Source: an uncultured Candidatus Saccharibacteria bacterium (lineage in GTDB: Bacteria; Patescibacteriota; Minisyncoccia; Phycocordibacterales; JAKFXT01). Taken from it: a stretch of 64,000 bases of DNA. The DNA lies in contig CAZIPS010000001.1 of NCBI GenBank assembly GCA_964541455.1, positions 1,709-65,708 of the forward strand, written 5' to 3'. The first letter of the stretch is position 1. The number at the start of each line of letters is the position of its first letter. The notes beneath the pieces were generated by a model, which had not been told where the DNA came from, searched no databases, and saw only the letters and a list, made by a program, of their open reading frames with translations. The position numbers and the translations under genes were made by a program. Below are positions 5,143 through 54,967 of this stretch, in pieces.

Positions 5143-6183
5143 ATGAACATACTTATCACCACACAAGCAGTAGATAATAAAGATGACCACTTCGTTTTTT
5201 TCCTTGATTGGATTTCTGAATTTGCGGCATCGTATAAAAAAGTGACCGTTATTGCGCTACGTACGGGAGAGTATACGCTTCCCCCTAATGTAAAAGTAGT
5301 GTCACTTGGGAAAAATGAGGGGAAGGGGAGACTTACCTATTTGTATCGTTTTTTTAAGACGATTCTTAGTGAGCGTCGGGAGTATGATGATGTATTTGTA
5401 TTTATGAATCCAGAATATGTGGTCTTGGGGGGACTTATCTGGAGATACCTAGGTAAGCGTATTGGGTTATGGTATACCCACAAACAGGTTAATTTAAAAT
5501 TGCGGGTAGCGCATTTTTTTACTCATATTGTTTTTACTGCAATAAAAGAGAGTTTCCGTATCCCTTCTACAAAAGTCTGCGTGGTAGGGCACGGTATCAA
5601 TACTGATCTTTTTTCACCCATGCCCGTGCCTCAACAGGGAATTGAAATACTTACAGTATCTCGAATTGCTCCTATTAAGCATATTGAAAATATGATTGAA
5701 GCAGTACCGTTTATAGAAAAGAAGCTTAATCAAAAAGTAACGCTTTCAATTGTGAGCGCCCTTCCATCAAAAGACGATGCGTATTATCAAAAACTTATAA
5801 CCCTTATTACTCAAAAAAAGCTAACAGAGCAGGTTCATTTTCTAGGCGCTATTCCAGGGGGTGAGCTCCCGCCTGTGTATAATCGTGCTACTATCACTTT
5901 TAACCTGACGCCAACAGGTGGGCTTGATAAGGCAGTACTTGAATCACTTTCTTGCGGCGTTCCTGTTATTGCTTCAAATCAAGGACTGCGACCGCTTTTT
6001 GGTGTCTATCAAGACAGACTTTCAGTTGCTTTGGGGGATGTGGAAGAGTTAGCAGAAAAGGCGTCTTTAGCAGTATCTTTAAAAGAGCATGAAAGCGAAG
6101 CATTGCGTGCCCTCGTTAAAGATACGTATTCTTATAAAACACTCATTAAAAAAATAATAGCTATATATGAAACAGGTCGATAA
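5143..6183 (+). CDS. GT-B glycosyltransferase (GT4-like)
   Basis: GGLDKAVLESLSCGVPVIASNQG is a C-terminal GT4-like nucleotide-sugar-binding motif. Tightly packed in the same operon. Confidence 0.6.
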   Translation: MNILITTQAVDNKDDHFVFFLDWISEFAASYKKVTVIALRTGEYTLPPNVKVVSLGKNEGKGRLTYLYRFFKTILSERREYDDVFVFMNPEYVVLGGLIWRYLGKRIGLWYTHKQVNLKLRVAHFFTHIVFTAIKESFRIPSTKVCVVGHGINTDLFSPMPVPQQGIEILTVSRIAPIKHIENMIEAVPFIEKKLNQKVTLSIVSALPSKDDAYYQKLITLITQKKLTEQVHFLGAIPGGELPPVYNRATITFNLTPTGGLDKAVLESLSCGVPVIASNQGLRPLFGVYQDRLSVALGDVEELAEKASLAVSLKEHESEALRALVKDTYSYKTLIKKIIAIYETGR

Positions 6184-29894: not shown

Positions 29895-30926
29895 ATGATT
29901 AAGACGGCTATACCACTTTCTGCCCATAGTACTTTTAAGGTGGGGGGAAAGGCTGATTTTTTTGTTGCAGTAACTACGTTAGAGGAGCTTAAAGACGCTT
30001 TGGCGTATAGCGATGAAAAGGGTTTGCCCGTTCATATATTAGGGGGAGGATCAAATACCCTCTTTAGTGATGAGGGTTTTAGGGGATTAGTTATAAAAAT
30101 TGATATAAAGGGGTTTGTTTTTAAAGAAGAGCATGAAGCACATGTTATAGAGGTGGGGGCCGGAGAGGATTGGGACTATATAGTAAGGGAAACGGGAGCA
30201 CGAGGAATAATTGGATTTGAGAATCTTGCTTTTATACCGGGGACTGTTGGGGGAGCGGTGGTGCAAAATATTGGAGCCTATAATAGAGAGATAGGTGCTT
30301 TCGTCCACTCTGTTGAAGTGTATGATCGAGAAAAGAAAAAAGTACAAACACTCACGCACGCTGATTGCCACTTCAAGTATCGCCATAGTATTTTCAAAGA
30401 AAAGAAAGCCGCTCATCTAATTGTGACACGTGTAGTCTTTAAACTTTTAACATCAGACACACTTAAAACAACCTATCCTGAACTGCATTCATTTTTAGAG
30501 ACACAGTATAAAAAAGAAGAAATACTAAACGCTGACATGGTGAGAAGCGCAGTTACAATGCTACGAACAAAAAAACTGCCTTCGCTTTCAGACTACGGCA
30601 CGGCCGGGTCATTTTTTAAAAATCCGATTATCGAAGATGGAAAAATATCTTTACTCAAAGCCCGATTCCCAGAATTGCCAGTCTGGAATGTAGGACTTGG
30701 GAAAAGTAAGATTCCTGCAGCGTATCTCATTGATAAAATCGCTCTTCTTAAGGGAGAAATAGTAGGGGGAGCGTCATTATGGAACCTTCAAGCATTAGTA
30801 ATTGTGACTAATACTTCTGCAACTTCACGTGATGTGTATACGCTTAAAGAAAAAATAAAAAAAGTTGTGTTAGAAAAAACAGGAATTACACTTGAAGAAG
30901 AAGTATGTATAGTAGGAGAAAAATAA
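29895..30926 (+). CDS. murB: UDP-N-acetylenolpyruvoylglucosamine reductase
   Basis: FAD-binding PCMH domain motifs FKVGGKADFFVAVTTLEELKDA...ILGGGSNTLFSDEG. MurB C-terminal domain (ENLAFIPGTVGGAVVQNIGAYN). Confidence 0.8.
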   Translation: MIKTAIPLSAHSTFKVGGKADFFVAVTTLEELKDALAYSDEKGLPVHILGGGSNTLFSDEGFRGLVIKIDIKGFVFKEEHEAHVIEVGAGEDWDYIVRETGARGIIGFENLAFIPGTVGGAVVQNIGAYNREIGAFVHSVEVYDREKKKVQTLTHADCHFKYRHSIFKEKKAAHLIVTRVVFKLLTSDTLKTTYPELHSFLETQYKKEEILNADMVRSAVTMLRTKKLPSLSDYGTAGSFFKNPIIEDGKISLLKARFPELPVWNVGLGKSKIPAAYLIDKIALLKGEIVGGASLWNLQALVIVTNTSATSRDVYTLKEKIKKVVLEKTGITLEEEVCIVGEK

Positions 30927-31022
30927 TTTTTAAAAAAATAAAAGTAACATTAAAAAATTTTTACATAAAAATATTTTTTAAAAAAATAAAAGTTATCCAC
31001 ATAAAAATACAAAAAAATATTG
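30927..31022. repeat. AT-rich tandem imperfect direct repeats (~46-48 bp unit, 2 copies)
   Basis: ttttaaaaaaataaaagtaacat...acataaaaata is repeated as ttttttaaaaaaataaaagttatccacataaaaata. GC is below 20%. Confidence 0.5.
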
Positions 31023-31176
31023 TGAGAAGATTCAACACACATCATAATATGTATTAGAAGTAGCAGTGAGTTGATTCAACTCTTTAGAGAACACAAACAT
31101 TTAAATTTTAAATCATAGTGCTTTAAAGAGAGGTCGCCAACACACTGTTCATTTAATAGTTTTTGATACCATTATC

Positions 31177-31242
31177 ATGGCAGCAAAGAAAAAGAAGGCA
31201 GCTAAGAAGGCAGCCAAGAAGTCAAAGAAAAAGAAGAACTAG
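31177..31242 (+). CDS. 21-codon micro-ORF encoding the poly-Lys/Ala peptide MAAKKKKAAKKAAKKSKKKKN
   Basis: ATG at 31177, TAG at 31240-31242. Followed 25 nt later by a strong intrinsic terminator. Preceded by an AT-rich promoter-like region. Coding status unproven. Confidence 0.3.
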   Translation: MAAKKKKAAKKAAKKSKKKKN

Positions 31243-31267
31243 TCTTTAGTCTTCTCACTTCAAGTAA

Positions 31268-31298
31268 AAGACCCTCCTATCGAGGGTCTTTTACTTTT
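31268..31298 (+). terminator. rho-independent terminator after the micro-ORF
   Basis: aaaagaccctc-ctatc-gagggtctttt stem (about 11 bp) followed by acttttaa. Confidence 0.7.
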
Positions 31299-31335
31299 AA
31301 GGGAGCGTTCTCGAATGCGTATTTTGATTGTTTCA

Positions 31336-31362
31336 ACAAAAAAAGACGCGCTTTCGCGCGCC
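31336..31362 (-). terminator. rho-independent terminator of the GC-rich minus-strand gene
   Basis: On the minus strand: ggcgcgc-gaaa-gcgcgtc followed by a U7-8 run (A-run 31338-31344 on the plus strand). Confidence 0.65.
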
Positions 31363-31384
31363 TTCGATCCGAATTGGCTGGGGA

Positions 31385-31957
31385 CTATTCCGGCTCAGCC
31401 ACAAACCGATGTTTCCCGTCGTCCCCAAGGGGTTCTTTGATGATGAAGGTCTTACCGTGCCCCTTCAGGAACTTTGTCACCGTCACTTTCGGATAGAAGC
31501 AGATGACATAGGTAACCCCGTTCCCGCCGAGTTCAAACTTGAGTGGTGGGCTTGCAGGAGACCAGTCCCAGTCGTCTTGCGAGACACTGCAGTGCTTGAA
31601 GCGTGTGGTGTCCCCAAACGCCTCGCGGACAATTCTAATAGCGGTGTTCACTTGCTTAGTGAGGGGCTGGTATTTCGAAGACTCGAGGCATTTGGTAGCC
31701 AAGGTGGCTGCCTTGAGGCCGAGGCTTCGAGCTTCATCAGCAGTCACCCTGAGGAGGCTCCCATAGGGGCCTTGGGGGATAGAGGTCTTCAATTGACTCC
31801 CGTAACGGTTGTCCACCATGATGGGGAGGAAATGCCTCGGCCCATTCAGCATTTCCGCGATGCCATCTTTTCCGATGGGTACAAGTAATGCTGGCGAGGT
31901 GGGAGGAGGACTCCCGTAGGAAATCACGAGCGAAACATAGATCGCCGGGTCTGACAT
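31385..31957 (-). CDS. hypothetical protein encoded in a GC-rich (~55%) island; no recognisable family
   Basis: 190-aa ORF with a canonical SD (AAGGAG, 5-nt spacer) before ATG at 31957 and its own terminator. GC content is clearly higher than the flanking ~40% GC genome. The overlapping plus-strand ORFs are Arg-rich shadow frames. Confidence 0.55.
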   Translation of the reverse strand: MSDPAIYVSLVISYGSPPPTSPALLVPIGKDGIAEMLNGPRHFLPIMVDNRYGSQLKTSIPQGPYGSLLRVTADEARSLGLKAATLATKCLESSKYQPLTKQVNTAIRIVREAFGDTTRFKHCSVSQDDWDWSPASPPLKFELGGNGVTYVICFYPKVTVTKFLKGHGKTFIIKEPLGDDGKHRFVAEPE

Positions 31958-32102
31958 ACGCTCTCCTTAAGGGGGGGGGTGAGGGTTTGTACTACAATAG
32001 TGCTTTTCGAACCATACCTTTTTATTTTTAAAAGTCAAACGCCACTTGTTGTAGTGGTGTTAGTTTATGGAGGGCCCCCCTTCTTTGTGCTAGAATGCCT
32101 CA

Positions 32103-34628
32103 ATGTTTAAATGGCTCAAAAACATAGGAAATACGGGGGCTGAAGCGGTAAAAGCAGCTGAAGTAATCTTAAAAGAGGTTAATGCTTTTGAGTCAACTAT
32201 TTCAGCGCTCTCTGATGAGGGGCTTAAAGCGAAAACAGACGAGTTTAAAGCACGGCTTAAGGGGGGTGAAACACTTCAAGATATCCTGCCAGAAGCCTAC
32301 GCGGTGGTGAGGGAGACGGCAAAACGTGTGCGCAATGAGCGTCATTTTGATGTACAGATTATTGGTGGGGTAATTCTTAATAATAGAGGGATTGCGGAAA
32401 TGCGCACTGGTGAGGGAAAGACACTTGTTGCTACGCTTCCCGCGTATCTAAACGCGCTTTTGGAAAAGGGTGTGCATGTGGTAACCGTGAATGACTATCT
32501 TTCACGCCGCGATGCGGTATGGATGGGAGAAATATACAACTTCCTAGGACTTACGGTGGGAGTACTTAACCATGAGGCTTCATATCTTTATGATAAAACT
32601 GCTACCACAAAAGAAGAAGATGAAGAGAGAGACATTCTAGGTTCATTCAAAGTAGTGCATGATTTTTTGCGCCCTTCAACAAGAAATGAAGCGTATAGAG
32701 CAGATATTACCTATGGCACAAATAGTGAATTTGGTTTTGATTATTTGCGAGACAATCTAGAGTATGAAGTTTCTGCGCTTCGCCAGAGAGAGCCATACTT
32801 TGCAATAGTTGATGAAATAGACTCTATTCTTATAGATGAAGCACGCACACCACTCATTATTTCCGCCCCCTCATCAGATAGTGCTGATCTTTACCAAGTG
32901 TTTGCAGGAATTGCCAAGCAGTTAAAAAAGGAAGTTGATTTTACGGTGGATGAGAAGTTGAAAGCCATCACCCTTACAGATGAGGGGATTACGCATGCTG
33001 AAAAATTACTTGGCGTTGAAAATATTTACACCGAGAAGGGGGTTAAGTATGTGCATCACCTTGAAACGGCGGTACGCGCACAAGCTCTTTTTGAAAAAGA
33101 TAAAGAGTATGTAGTTAAAGATGGGGAAATTATCATTGTTGATGAGTTCACGGGACGCCTGCAACCAGGACGACGCTGGTCTGAAGGGTTACATCAGGCG
33201 ATTGAGGCAAAAGAAGGGGTAGAGGTGCAAAAAGAGTCACGCACCTTTGCATCTATCACGTATCAAAATTATTTTAGACTTTACGAAAAGCTCTCGGGTA
33301 TGACGGGAACTGCTATGACCTCGTCTGAAGAGTTCTACAAGGTATATGGACTAAACACCGTTGCTATCCCTACTAATAGAGCTATTGCACGTGTTGATCA
33401 TGATGATCTTATTTTCCAAACTGAAAAAGGGAAAATGAAAGCTTTAGCACGAAGAGTAAAGGAGCTGCATGAAAAAAAGCAGCCTGTACTTATCGGGACA
33501 GTGTCAATTGAAAAAAATGAAGTACTATCAGCCTATCTTAAAAGTGAAGGTATCCCGCATCATATATTGAATGCAAAAAATCACGAGCAAGAAGGTGAGA
33601 TTATTGCGCAAGCGGGAACACTGGGTCAGGTCACTATCGCTACTAACATGGCAGGTCGCGGAGTGGATATTAAACTTGGGGGGAACCCTGCGACAGTAGA
33701 ACAGTATGAAGGGGTTAAGGCACTCGGTGGACTTATGGTGATTGGAACCGAGCGACATGAAGCACGTCGTATCGATAACCAGCTTCGTGGTCGCTCGGGA
33801 CGACAGGGAGATCCAGGAGAAACACAATTCTTTGTTTCGCTTGAAGACCCCCTCATGCGCATTTTTGCTTCAGATACCATTAAAACAATGATGGGCCGTT
33901 TTGGTATTCCGGAAGATCAACCTATTGAAAATAGGTTGATTACGCGTTCACTTGAGTCGGCACAAACAAAAATCGAAGGGTTCCATTTTGATTCACGTAA
34001 AAATATTCTTGAGTATGATGATGTGCTAAGTCATCAGCGTACTTCTATTTATGAAAAGCGTCGTAGCGCGCTTATGGGAGATAATGAAGTCCTCGAAGGA
34101 TTGCTTAATGAAGCGATTATGGGAGACGATACGCTTCTCAAGATGGCACAGGAGAAAAAAGATCGTATGGGGGAGGAGTATTTCTACCAAAATCTTCGTC
34201 GACTTATGTTACAAATTATTGATACGTTTTGGGTCGATCATCTCGAGGCGATGGACTATTTACGTTCATCGGTTAACTTAAGAGCGTATGGGCAGCGCGA
34301 TCCCCTTGTTGAATACAAAAAAGAGGGATTACGCTTGTTTAAAGATATGGAAGAGGGGATACAGGAGGAAGTTATCCGTTTACTCCCACACATTGATGCT
34401 GGACTTTTTAAAACAGAAGAAAATAAAAATTTAGCCATGGTACATGAAAGTGCGGAGAGCATTACAGGAGGTACCTCAAGCGGAAATACTGTAGTGAGCG
34501 AGGGTGGAGTGGTTAATAGTGAAAAAATAGGACGCAATGATACATGCCCCTGTGGTTCTGGTAAAAAGTATAAAAAATGTGGAGAACTCAACACACCTGA
34601 ACATCAGCGTTTAATGAGTCAAAAGTAA
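32103..34628 (+). CDS. secA: preprotein translocase ATPase SecA
   Basis: DEAD-motor motifs (MRTGEGKTLVATLPAYLNAL, DEIDSILIDEARTPLIIS). Conserved TGTAMT. C-terminal zinc finger CPCGSGKKYKKCG. Confidence 0.95.
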   Translation: MFKWLKNIGNTGAEAVKAAEVILKEVNAFESTISALSDEGLKAKTDEFKARLKGGETLQDILPEAYAVVRETAKRVRNERHFDVQIIGGVILNNRGIAEMRTGEGKTLVATLPAYLNALLEKGVHVVTVNDYLSRRDAVWMGEIYNFLGLTVGVLNHEASYLYDKTATTKEEDEERDILGSFKVVHDFLRPSTRNEAYRADITYGTNSEFGFDYLRDNLEYEVSALRQREPYFAIVDEIDSILIDEARTPLIISAPSSDSADLYQVFAGIAKQLKKEVDFTVDEKLKAITLTDEGITHAEKLLGVENIYTEKGVKYVHHLETAVRAQALFEKDKEYVVKDGEIIIVDEFTGRLQPGRRWSEGLHQAIEAKEGVEVQKESRTFASITYQNYFRLYEKLSGMTGTAMTSSEEFYKVYGLNTVAIPTNRAIARVDHDDLIFQTEKGKMKALARRVKELHEKKQPVLIGTVSIEKNEVLSAYLKSEGIPHHILNAKNHEQEGEIIAQAGTLGQVTIATNMAGRGVDIKLGGNPATVEQYEGVKALGGLMVIGTERHEARRIDNQLRGRSGRQGDPGETQFFVSLEDPLMRIFASDTIKTMMGRFGIPEDQPIENRLITRSLESAQTKIEGFHFDSRKNILEYDDVLSHQRTSIYEKRRSALMGDNEVLEGLLNEAIMGDDTLLKMAQEKKDRMGEEYFYQNLRRLMLQIIDTFWVDHLEAMDYLRSSVNLRAYGQRDPLVEYKKEGLRLFKDMEEGIQEEVIRLLPHIDAGLFKTEENKNLAMVHESAESITGGTSSGNTVVSEGGVVNSEKIGRNDTCPCGSGKKYKKCGELNTPEHQRLMSQK

Positions 34629-38196: not shown

Positions 38197-39165
38197 ATGG
38201 CGTTTATTGATGAAATAAAGCTCCATCTTAAGTCCGGCCGCGGAGGCGATGGGGTAGTTCGTTGGCGCCATGAAAAGGGGATACAGCTTGGGGGGCCATC
38301 AGGAGGCAATGGAAATAAGGGAGGAGATGTCTATGCGGTTGGGGTACGCGATTTGGGACTTCTTGTTCGTTATCGTAATGTGAAAGAATTGTCCGCCAAA
38401 GACGGCGAACCAGGTTCAAAAAATAAACAACAAGGTGCACAAGGTGAAGATCTTCTTCTTGAGGTACCACTAGGTTCACTTATAAAAAACCTCGACACAC
38501 AAAGGACTGTTGAAATACTTGATGAGGGGCAAAAGGAAATACTGCTTCACGGGGGCAGGGGGGGGCTTGGGAATGATCATTTTAAAAGTTCAGTGAATCG
38601 TTCTCCTACTGAATGGACACCGGGAGAGAAAGGAGAAGAAGGTAATTTTAGTATTGAATTGCGCTTAATTGCAGATGCTGGGCTTATAGGACTGCCTAAT
38701 GCAGGGAAATCAAGTTTGCTTAACGCACTCACTAACGCTAAGGCGAAAATCGGGAGCTATCAATTTACAACACTTGAGCCAAATTTGGGGAGTCTTTATG
38801 GACTTATTCTTGCTGATATTCCAGGCCTCATTGAAGGAGCAAGTGAGGGGAAGGGACTTGGGCACAAATTCCTCCGTCATATTACACGTACACACGTCCT
38901 CCTTCATTGTATTTCGCTTGAAAATGAAGATATTAGCGGAACGTATAACACTGTAAGGGAAGAGCTGCGTAAGTATTCTCCAGAACTTATCGATAAAGAG
39001 GAGGTTATTATTCTCACCAAAACAGATATGGTGTCCCAGGCGGTTGTTAAAGAAAAAGTAAAAGAAGCCAAAACATTAGTGAAAAAAGTTTACACTGTAT
39101 CGGTGCTTGATGATGCGTCAGTTAAAGCGCTTAGCGAAGACATAACAAAGCTCCTTAAGGGGTAG
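38197..39165 (+). CDS. obg: GTPase Obg
   Basis: Obg fold N-terminus FIDEIKLHLKSGRGGDGVVRWRHEKG...GGNGNKGGDVY. G1 GLPNAGKSSLLNAL. G3 DIPGLIEGASEG. NKxD-equivalent TKTD. Confidence 0.85.
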   Translation: MAFIDEIKLHLKSGRGGDGVVRWRHEKGIQLGGPSGGNGNKGGDVYAVGVRDLGLLVRYRNVKELSAKDGEPGSKNKQQGAQGEDLLLEVPLGSLIKNLDTQRTVEILDEGQKEILLHGGRGGLGNDHFKSSVNRSPTEWTPGEKGEEGNFSIELRLIADAGLIGLPNAGKSSLLNALTNAKAKIGSYQFTTLEPNLGSLYGLILADIPGLIEGASEGKGLGHKFLRHITRTHVLLHCISLENEDISGTYNTVREELRKYSPELIDKEEVIILTKTDMVSQAVVKEKVKEAKTLVKKVYTVSVLDDASVKALSEDITKLLKG

Positions 39166-54894: not shown

Positions 54895-54967
54895 GCCACC
54901 TTAGCTCAGTTGGTAGAGCAACTCACTTGTAATGAGTAGGTCCCCAGTTCAAGCCTGGGAGGTGGCT
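54895..54967 (+). tRNA. tRNA-Thr (anticodon UGU)
   Basis: Cloverleaf: acceptor gccacct/aggtggc, D-arm gctc-agttggtag-agc, anticodon arm actca-cTTGTAa-tgagt (anticodon TGT), T-arm cccag-ttcaagc-ctggg. No encoded CCA. Confidence 0.8.

Follow-up and report, generated by a model that had tools for sequence, protein, structure and literature searches.

A GC-rich orphan gene between murB and secA of a Paceibacteria species, probably a horizontally acquired islet

Introduction

How a single gene of strongly deviating composition came to lie between two housekeeping genes of a streamlined genome is the question raised by a 64-kb stretch of contig CAZIPS010000001.1 (the whole of this stretch is referred to as the window). 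The gene is an open reading frame (ORF) for 190 amino acids (aa), designated ORF190, which was found on the minus strand in the gap between murB and secA. The explanation that we consider probable is that ORF190 and its signals form a self-contained monocistronic minus-strand unit within a 756-bp foreign insert, which would have been acquired in the ancestor of the species, i.e., a horizontally acquired ORFan islet. If so, the locus represents a clean and well-bounded gene gain in a genome of the Candidate Phyla Radiation (CPR)/Patescibacteria, in which a foreign unit led by a Shine-Dalgarno (SD) sequence occupies the single free gap of a conserved murB-secA region. The features of the insert and the two genes at its sides are listed below by position in the window; GC denotes guanine plus cytosine content.

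29895..30926: murB, identified via Pfam annotation of identical genes on public contigs
31308..32063, no strand: insert (islet), 756 bp; GC 0.524 overall, 0.550 in the coding sequence, and 0.338 in the promoter-proximal 74 bp
31328..31888, plus strand: antisense shadow ORF, 186 aa, judged not to be a gene
31342..31365, minus strand: intrinsic terminator GAAGGCGCGC-GAAA-GCGCGTCTTT, with a 10-bp stem, GAAA loop, and U7 tail
31385..31957, minus strand: ORF190 gene, 190 aa, 20.8 kDa, isoelectric point 8.9, intact in five haplotypes
31963..31968, minus strand: SD sequence AAGGAG, 5 nt upstream of the ATG at 31957, read directly
31971..31979, minus strand: homopolymer, C9 in mRNA sense (G9 on the plus strand), in the predicted 5' untranslated region (UTR), 2 nt upstream of the SD sequence
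32011..32038, minus strand: predicted sigma-70-type promoter TTGACT-16-TATGGT, from a consensus scan (9/12 matches), divergent from secA
32042..32057, no strand: short hairpin CCACTACAACAAGTGG, at the end of the insert that faces secA
32103..34628: secA, identified in the same way as murB

Composition and Expression Signals of the Insert

The window has a GC content of 41.7% and a steadily positive GC skew, and nearly all of its genes are on the plus strand. ORF190 reaches a GC content of 55.0% (54.5, 45.0, and 65.4% at codon positions 1, 2, and 3, respectively), and the most GC-rich 573-bp segment of the whole 64 kb is ORF190 itself; segments of this length that do not overlap it have a mean of 41.6% (standard deviation (sd) 2.6, maximum 48.9), which places ORF190 at about +5 sd. 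A comparison of all 63 ORFs of at least 100 aa in the window (ORF190 and 62 others) revealed that it is an extreme outlier in both GC (0.550 versus 0.415 ± 0.029 in the others) and GC at the third codon position (GC3; 0.654 versus 0.357 ± 0.039, no other ORF exceeding 0.471). Its fit to the codon usage of the window, calculated by a measure similar to the codon adaptation index, is the lowest of the 63 (0.574 versus 0.730 ± 0.035), and its orientation is that of a small minority, 58 of the 63 ORFs being on the plus strand. Other GC peaks, examined in 150-bp segments of the window, occur only within ordinary genes, i.e., in the part of Obg that encodes its glycine-rich N-terminus and in a gene for a secreted Gly/Pro/Thr-rich protein. 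These recalculations of windowed GC and codon fit confirm the GC-rich single-gene island of about 55% that the first-pass annotation had placed at 31300-31990. The signals it had described there, including the SD sequence, the terminator hairpin with its U-run, the promoter, the G9 run, and the antisense shadow ORFs (a second one has 75 aa), were all found in place as well.

The start of ORF190 transcription would be near 32004, as inferred from the predicted promoter, and the terminator has no variable site, being identical across all haplotypes described below. The other 62 ORFs are almost never preceded by a strict SD motif (GGAG or GAGG), and a leaderless or short-leader, largely non-SD initiation regime is suggested for this genome. 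As the other genes hardly use SD sequences, the canonical AAGGAG of ORF190 looks as if it had been imported together with the gene. Among the singleton changes that could be polarised, four were GC-to-AT and one was AT-to-GC, which is compatible with ongoing amelioration, with a count too small to weigh.

Presence of the Insert in Other Assemblies

Such an abrupt change in composition could also be produced by a misjoin with DNA of a higher-GC organism, and an assembly chimera had indeed been named as an option in the first-pass annotation. A search for exact matches to the 190-aa protein, to members of its cluster, and to the antisense ORF yielded eleven contigs besides the window (L001 and L075-L084), which stem from ENA, JGI, and Logan and represent at least 10 samples and different assemblers. 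In each of them, the insert has the same surroundings and identical junctions. Contigs L075, L080, L081, and L082 run from the insert into secA and/or murB, and several contigs bridge both junctions. In addition, single-nucleotide polymorphisms (SNPs) within the insert are linked, haplotype by haplotype, with SNPs in its flanks. The chimera is refuted by these data, and its chance of being correct is practically nil.

Five haplotypes were distinguished among the contigs, which are 97.8-100% identical to the window. Some sites group haplotypes A and D against B and C, and others group A and B against C and D; because these SNP patterns are mutually incompatible, they indicate recombination among strains. 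Synonymous divergence (pS) between the window and L080 is 0.063 in ORF190 and 0.048 in secA, and since the two values resemble each other, the insert dates back at least to the common ancestor of the strains that were sampled.

The Insertion Site in Related Genomes

All relatives of the SecA protein were found in Patescibacteria of the Paceibacteria/Nomurabacteria type, the best being that of L002 (89% aa identity). The adjacency of murB and secA in related genomes, raised earlier as a point to be checked, was observed in ten relatives (L002-L005, L007-L009, L011, L016, and L019), in which murB lies directly upstream of secA and the gap between the two genes contains a module built around a mini-gene. 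The gap measures 325-750 bp in these relatives versus 1177 bp in the window, where the module consists of the following parts.

30993-31001, plus strand: perfect DnaA box TTATCCACA, with no second copy in the 64 kb; it precedes the mini-gene -35 element by about 18 nt
31020-31048, plus strand: promoter of the mini-gene
31178..31243, plus strand: Lys/Arg-rich mini-ORF, 21 aa, MAAKKKKAAKKAAKKSKKKKN, kept in all 10 syntenic relatives
31262-31296: terminator of the mini-gene (inverted repeat), at the left edge of the insertion gap
32088..32102, plus strand: extended -10 promoter of secA, TGCTAGAAT, with the ATG 6 nt downstream, at the right edge of the insertion gap

The alignment with L002 delimits the insert on both sides: homology extends through the mini-gene and its terminator, ends after CTTTTAAGGGAGCG at 31307, and restarts with TTTATGGAG (about 32064), a short distance before the secA promoter. 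At the insertion site, L002 has 135 unrelated bp (5827-5961) that consist of a 43-bp unit repeated 2.4 times with a GC of 0.548, and no local similarity was found between this filler and the insert. The gap is essentially empty in six other relatives. A tblastn search of ORF190 against all 74 loci matched only L001, which belongs to the same species, and no relative of ORF190 is encoded in the murB-secA gaps of the ten syntenic relatives. Because the GC, GC3, and codon usage of ORF190 are foreign, its SD sequence is canonical, its strand is opposite to that of most ORFs, and relatives lack the gene at this site, it is probably an imported gene.

The site has also changed in other lineages. Between L016 (approximately 5800-5950) and L011 (approximately 5800-5960), the flanks are 92-100% identical and about 170 bp at the site are only about 46-50% identical, a level that marks them as unrelated. 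No convincing ORF was found in the gap fillers of L002, L016, and L011. The interval from the mini-gene terminator to the secA core promoter would thus be a recurrent spot of sequence turnover, and the simplest reason may be that it is the sole unconstrained DNA of a tightly packed region.

This turnover leaves some room for the opposite history, in which ORF190 is an ancestral resident of the murB-secA gap that was repeatedly deleted in relatives, and the filler of L002, which is GC-rich and lies at the same spot, would also fit it. However, that filler is dissimilar to the insert, the gene is missing in all ten relatives (with the gap essentially empty in six), and no homologue was detected among 1.84 billion representative sequences. 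Furthermore, neither a GC3 of 0.654 versus 0.357 nor the lowest codon fit of the window would be expected for a long resident. Ancestral residence is thus very improbable, and an insertion into a previously free gap is the explanation that we prefer.

With regard to timing, the insert predates the divergence of the strains and postdates the split from the nearest sampled relative. The recent horizontal acquisition proposed in the first-pass annotation is accordingly upheld in its horizontal part, on the grounds of composition, SD sequence, and absence in relatives, whereas "recent" needs qualification, the insert being common to all five haplotypes.

Coding Status of ORF190

The 190-aa frame is intact in all five haplotypes, and it contains 20 variable sites, 10 of which are at codon position 3. 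Nine of the changes are synonymous and 11 are non-synonymous, whereas neutral change would be expected to give 24:76 (binomial test, p = 0.029). The pairwise ratio of non-synonymous to synonymous divergence (pN/pS) ranges from 0.15 to 0.48 in ORF190 and is about 0.02 in secA, about 0.03 in a Wzy-like gene, and about 0.2 in murB. The order of GC among codon positions in the minus frame is GC3 > GC1 > GC2. On this pattern of variation, ORF190 is regarded as a genuine protein-coding gene under moderate purifying selection.

The antisense frame was considered as a candidate gene and rejected: its changes look neutral (3 synonymous and 13 non-synonymous), and haplotype D (L082 and L083) has a nonsense allele in which an Arg codon is replaced by a stop codon. 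Public gene calls differ at this point, as NCBI/ENA annotate a 159-aa version of the antisense frame (P0005 and P0006), and JGI and Logan call the 190-aa ORF. The locus illustrates the strand-calling error that GC-rich inserts can provoke in public annotation.

It was also considered whether the GC-rich segment is not coding at all, but a structured RNA or inert foreign DNA with chance ORFs on both strands. No homologue exists for either ORF, no confident fold was obtained by AlphaFold2, and GC-rich DNA easily gives long ORFs in translation table 11, the 186-aa antisense frame being an example; all of this would fit a non-coding segment. The signals and the variation of the minus strand do not: the SD sequence and the ATG are well spaced, the terminator follows directly after the stop codon, the codon positions are ordered as GC3 > GC1 > GC2, and the synonymous excess is confined to the minus frame. 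A search of Rfam gave no match beyond noise (best E-values 1.5-10, with scores far under the gathering thresholds), and the fold was not significantly more stable than shuffled sequences (minimum free energy z-score -1.67, based on 20 shuffles); the non-coding RNA was rejected on these two results. As a whole, the non-coding explanation is unlikely, and a protein-coding ORF190 is assumed in the following.

Homology and Possible Function

Homologues of ORF190 were sought at several levels. Searches of Pfam, PHROGs, PADLOC, NCBIfam, and PDB sequences produced no hit or only matches at noise level. Neither a word-indexed collection of 5.8 billion clusters nor an exhaustive HMMER search against 1.84 billion representatives revealed a genuine homologue; the three extra matches of the latter (P0002-P0004) are highly repetitive proteins with 4-39 weakly matching stretches each and were judged to be artefacts of summed scores. 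Scans of metagenome and viral contigs gave no match, and the same was true of searches in 50,697 phage genomes, IMG/VR, and plasmids. As only copies from the same species (96-100% identical) were recovered by these searches, ORF190 is an ORFan, consistent with the earlier remark that the 190-aa protein belongs to no recognisable family. No donor lineage, high-GC or otherwise, was identified across the protein, metagenome, viral, phage, and plasmid searches, and the donor cannot be named because ORF190 has no homologue.

Structure prediction with AlphaFold2, either from the single sequence or from an alignment of the five haplotypes, yielded no usable model (predicted local distance difference test scores of 32 and 35, respectively). 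The predicted secondary structure is mixed alpha/beta, and neither a signal peptide nor a transmembrane segment was recognised by eye. With low confidence, the product might be an accessory protein that acts in the cytoplasm at the level of strains and serves in conflict or partner interaction (i.e., in immunity, defence, or anti-defence), the sole basis being that ORF190 is a single, fast-evolving, and species-restricted gene that has no export signal.

Origin and Route of Acquisition

Foreign DNA would have been integrated, in the ancestor of this Paceibacteria species (Patescibacteria/CPR), into the sole dispensable gap in the region that runs from murB through the Lys-rich mini-gene to secA. 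This gap is bounded by the terminator of the mini-gene on one side and the core promoter of secA on the other. In the direction of transcription, the acquired unit would comprise the predicted promoter, a leader of about 47 nt with the poly-C run, the SD sequence, the 190-aa ORF, and the intrinsic terminator.

No target-site duplication, terminal inverted repeats, or flanking direct repeats were found at 31308 and 32063, and a transposon or a miniature inverted-repeat transposable element was rejected on the lack of target-site duplication and terminal inverted repeats. There is no tRNA near the insert, the sole tRNA of the window being at 54895, and no integrase among the annotated neighbours, whose Pfam domains are Wzy_C/TPR, MurB, SecA, and Glyoxalase only. 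Because target-site duplication, terminal repeats, tRNA, and integrase are all missing, we infer that taken-up DNA entered by illegitimate or flank-homology recombination rather than by the action of a transposase or integrase.

Several points weigh against this interpretation. Neither a donor nor a homologue is at hand, and horizontal transfer is deduced from composition and phyletic pattern only. The coding signal comes from only 20 variable sites with p of about 0.03, and one of the 20 is from a contig with approximately 3x coverage. The pN/pS of ORF190 is 10-20 times the secA value, and selection on it is therefore weak. The functional guess has no direct support, the AlphaFold2 models being unusable. 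The promoter is a prediction that matches only 9 of 12 consensus positions, and the insert is AT-rich and host-like over the 74 bp nearest the promoter (GC 0.338); the promoter may therefore be native or have evolved in place, rather than having been imported.

A more specific scenario can be imagined, in which the gene was captured from an unsequenced partner or host of an episymbiotic Paceibacteria, or from its virus, with an SD-led donor of at least 55% GC. The DNA would have been taken up and recombined into the gap beside secA, and the strain-variable poly-C leader would tune a partner-interaction or defence protein of a new family. This scenario is speculative and improbable. If the donor were traceable, e.g., among organisms co-occurring in the same samples, it might reveal with which organism an uncultured episymbiont is physically associated. 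In other respects, ORF190 is an ordinary orphan gene, and its interest is modest.

The Homopolymer Tract

The run of nine identical nucleotides in the predicted leader had been compared in the first-pass annotation with the slipped-strand switches of phase variation. Under this idea, ORF190 would be a phase-variable contingency gene, the expression of which is switched or graded within populations by slippage of C9. The tract is a 9-nt homopolymer immediately upstream of the SD sequence, its length varies among haplotypes (9, 7, and 6), and ORF190 has the character of a species-restricted, fast-evolving accessory gene, all of which would suit such a role. Its states in mRNA sense are C9 (haplotype A), C7 (B), and C6T (C and D). 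The haplotypes differ by 1-3%, and the tract does mutate over the time in which strains diverge.

However, the details are less favourable to a switch. A single 2-nt indel, together with one substitution (C7 to C6T), accounts for all tract states, and one indel event is enough for five haplotypes. All seven independently assembled copies of haplotype A (the window, L075-L079, and L081) have a length of 9. The position of the tract, 32-40 nt downstream of the predicted -10 element, is in the 5' UTR and thus outside both the -35/-10 spacer and the ORF. A G9 or C9 run was also present in 27 of 100 dinucleotide-preserving shuffles of the window. Leader hairpins dependent on tract length were considered and rejected, as the folds did not change significantly with the length of the tract; the leader was also no more stable than shuffled sequences. 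The proposed switch is therefore unsupported, particularly in view of the 5' UTR position, the constancy in haplotype A, and the frequency in shuffles, and we regard phase variation as improbable. The poly-C run would be an ordinary mutable homopolymer of the leader, which at most tunes translation via the sequence beside the SD.

The second-longest G run of the window, G8 (38558-38565, plus strand), is inside the gene for the Obg GTPase (38197..39165), where it encodes part of the motif GGRGGLG. It is presumably plain coding sequence and not a switch, because a slip would cause a frameshift in an essential gene.

The Conserved Flanking Module

The module in the murB-secA gap was detected in all ten syntenic relatives, where it has the same parts as in the window, from the perfect DnaA box and the promoter through the very small Lys/Arg-rich ORF and its terminator to an extended -10 element of the form TGCTAnAAT. 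The leader of the mini-gene is approximately 130 nt long and includes a conserved GGTCG motif; no conserved structure was found in it by RNAalifold, for which the alignment was poor. The mini-ORF has a length of 19-30 aa in the relatives, apart from L007, in which a repeated version reaches about 110 aa. The window and L002 (5698-5763) share the same nucleotide sequence of the mini-ORF, though the MurB proteins of the two are only 53% identical. The DNA of the mini-gene was not found in a scan of the metagenome collection.

All 10 relatives have the DnaA box, in the form (G)TTATCCAC(A), at the corresponding place, which suggests DnaA-dependent regulation or another conserved binding site. The TGCTAnAAT element precedes secA in relatives too. 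As the extended -10 element is only 6 nt before the ATG and no SD sequence is present, secA is apparently leaderless. In the window, most genes are preceded by no SD motif of any kind, and a TAnAAT box located 6-9 nt before the ATG was observed for many first genes, secA included.

Comparison with Known Systems

Lineage-specific ORFans have reportedly been the subject of work by Daubin and Ochman. The islet resembles ORFan islets in being a single, short, species-restricted, and atypical gene that has no homologues, evolves faster than its neighbours, and interrupts a conserved synteny; no donor, phage, or mobile-element context was detected for it. ORFans of the classical bacterial kind are usually more AT-rich than the genome around them, whereas ORF190 is 13 points GC-richer than the genome in which it resides; it differs further in its CPR background and in bringing an SD sequence into an SD-poor genome.

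Phage morons are said, after Hendrix and colleagues, to be promoter-ORF-terminator units of deviant GC located between two prophage genes. The islet is similar in that one ORF with its own predicted promoter and intrinsic terminator and a deviant composition is placed cleanly between two genes, but these are the housekeeping genes murB and secA, and no match to PHROGs, phage genomes, or IMG/VR was obtained. Integron cassettes provide another parallel, as a single-gene unit is present at a recurrently variable site; unlike them, the islet has its own promoter, is not part of a cassette array, and has no integrase among its annotated neighbours. Downstream of the ORF190 stop codon, an inverted-repeat search for an attC-like repeat (no attC covariance model was run) returned only the terminator hairpin.

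Homopolymer contingency loci include the promoter-spacer tracts of Neisseria and Haemophilus and the G-repeat in the leader of H. pylori tlpB, which is targeted by the small RNA RepG. A strain-variable homopolymer of 6-9 nt upstream of an accessory gene, situated in the leader as in tlpB, is shared with these loci; in contrast to them, it has no evident partner small RNA, its length is constant across seven haplotype A assemblies, and such a tract is within chance for the window. The islet is neither a moron, as phage context is missing, nor an integron cassette or a classical contingency locus. It stands closest to the ORFan islets, from which it is set apart by the direction of its GC deviation and by an SD sequence in an SD-poor genome, and, together with zero homologues and a turnover-prone gap beside secA, these are the points that make the locus stand out.

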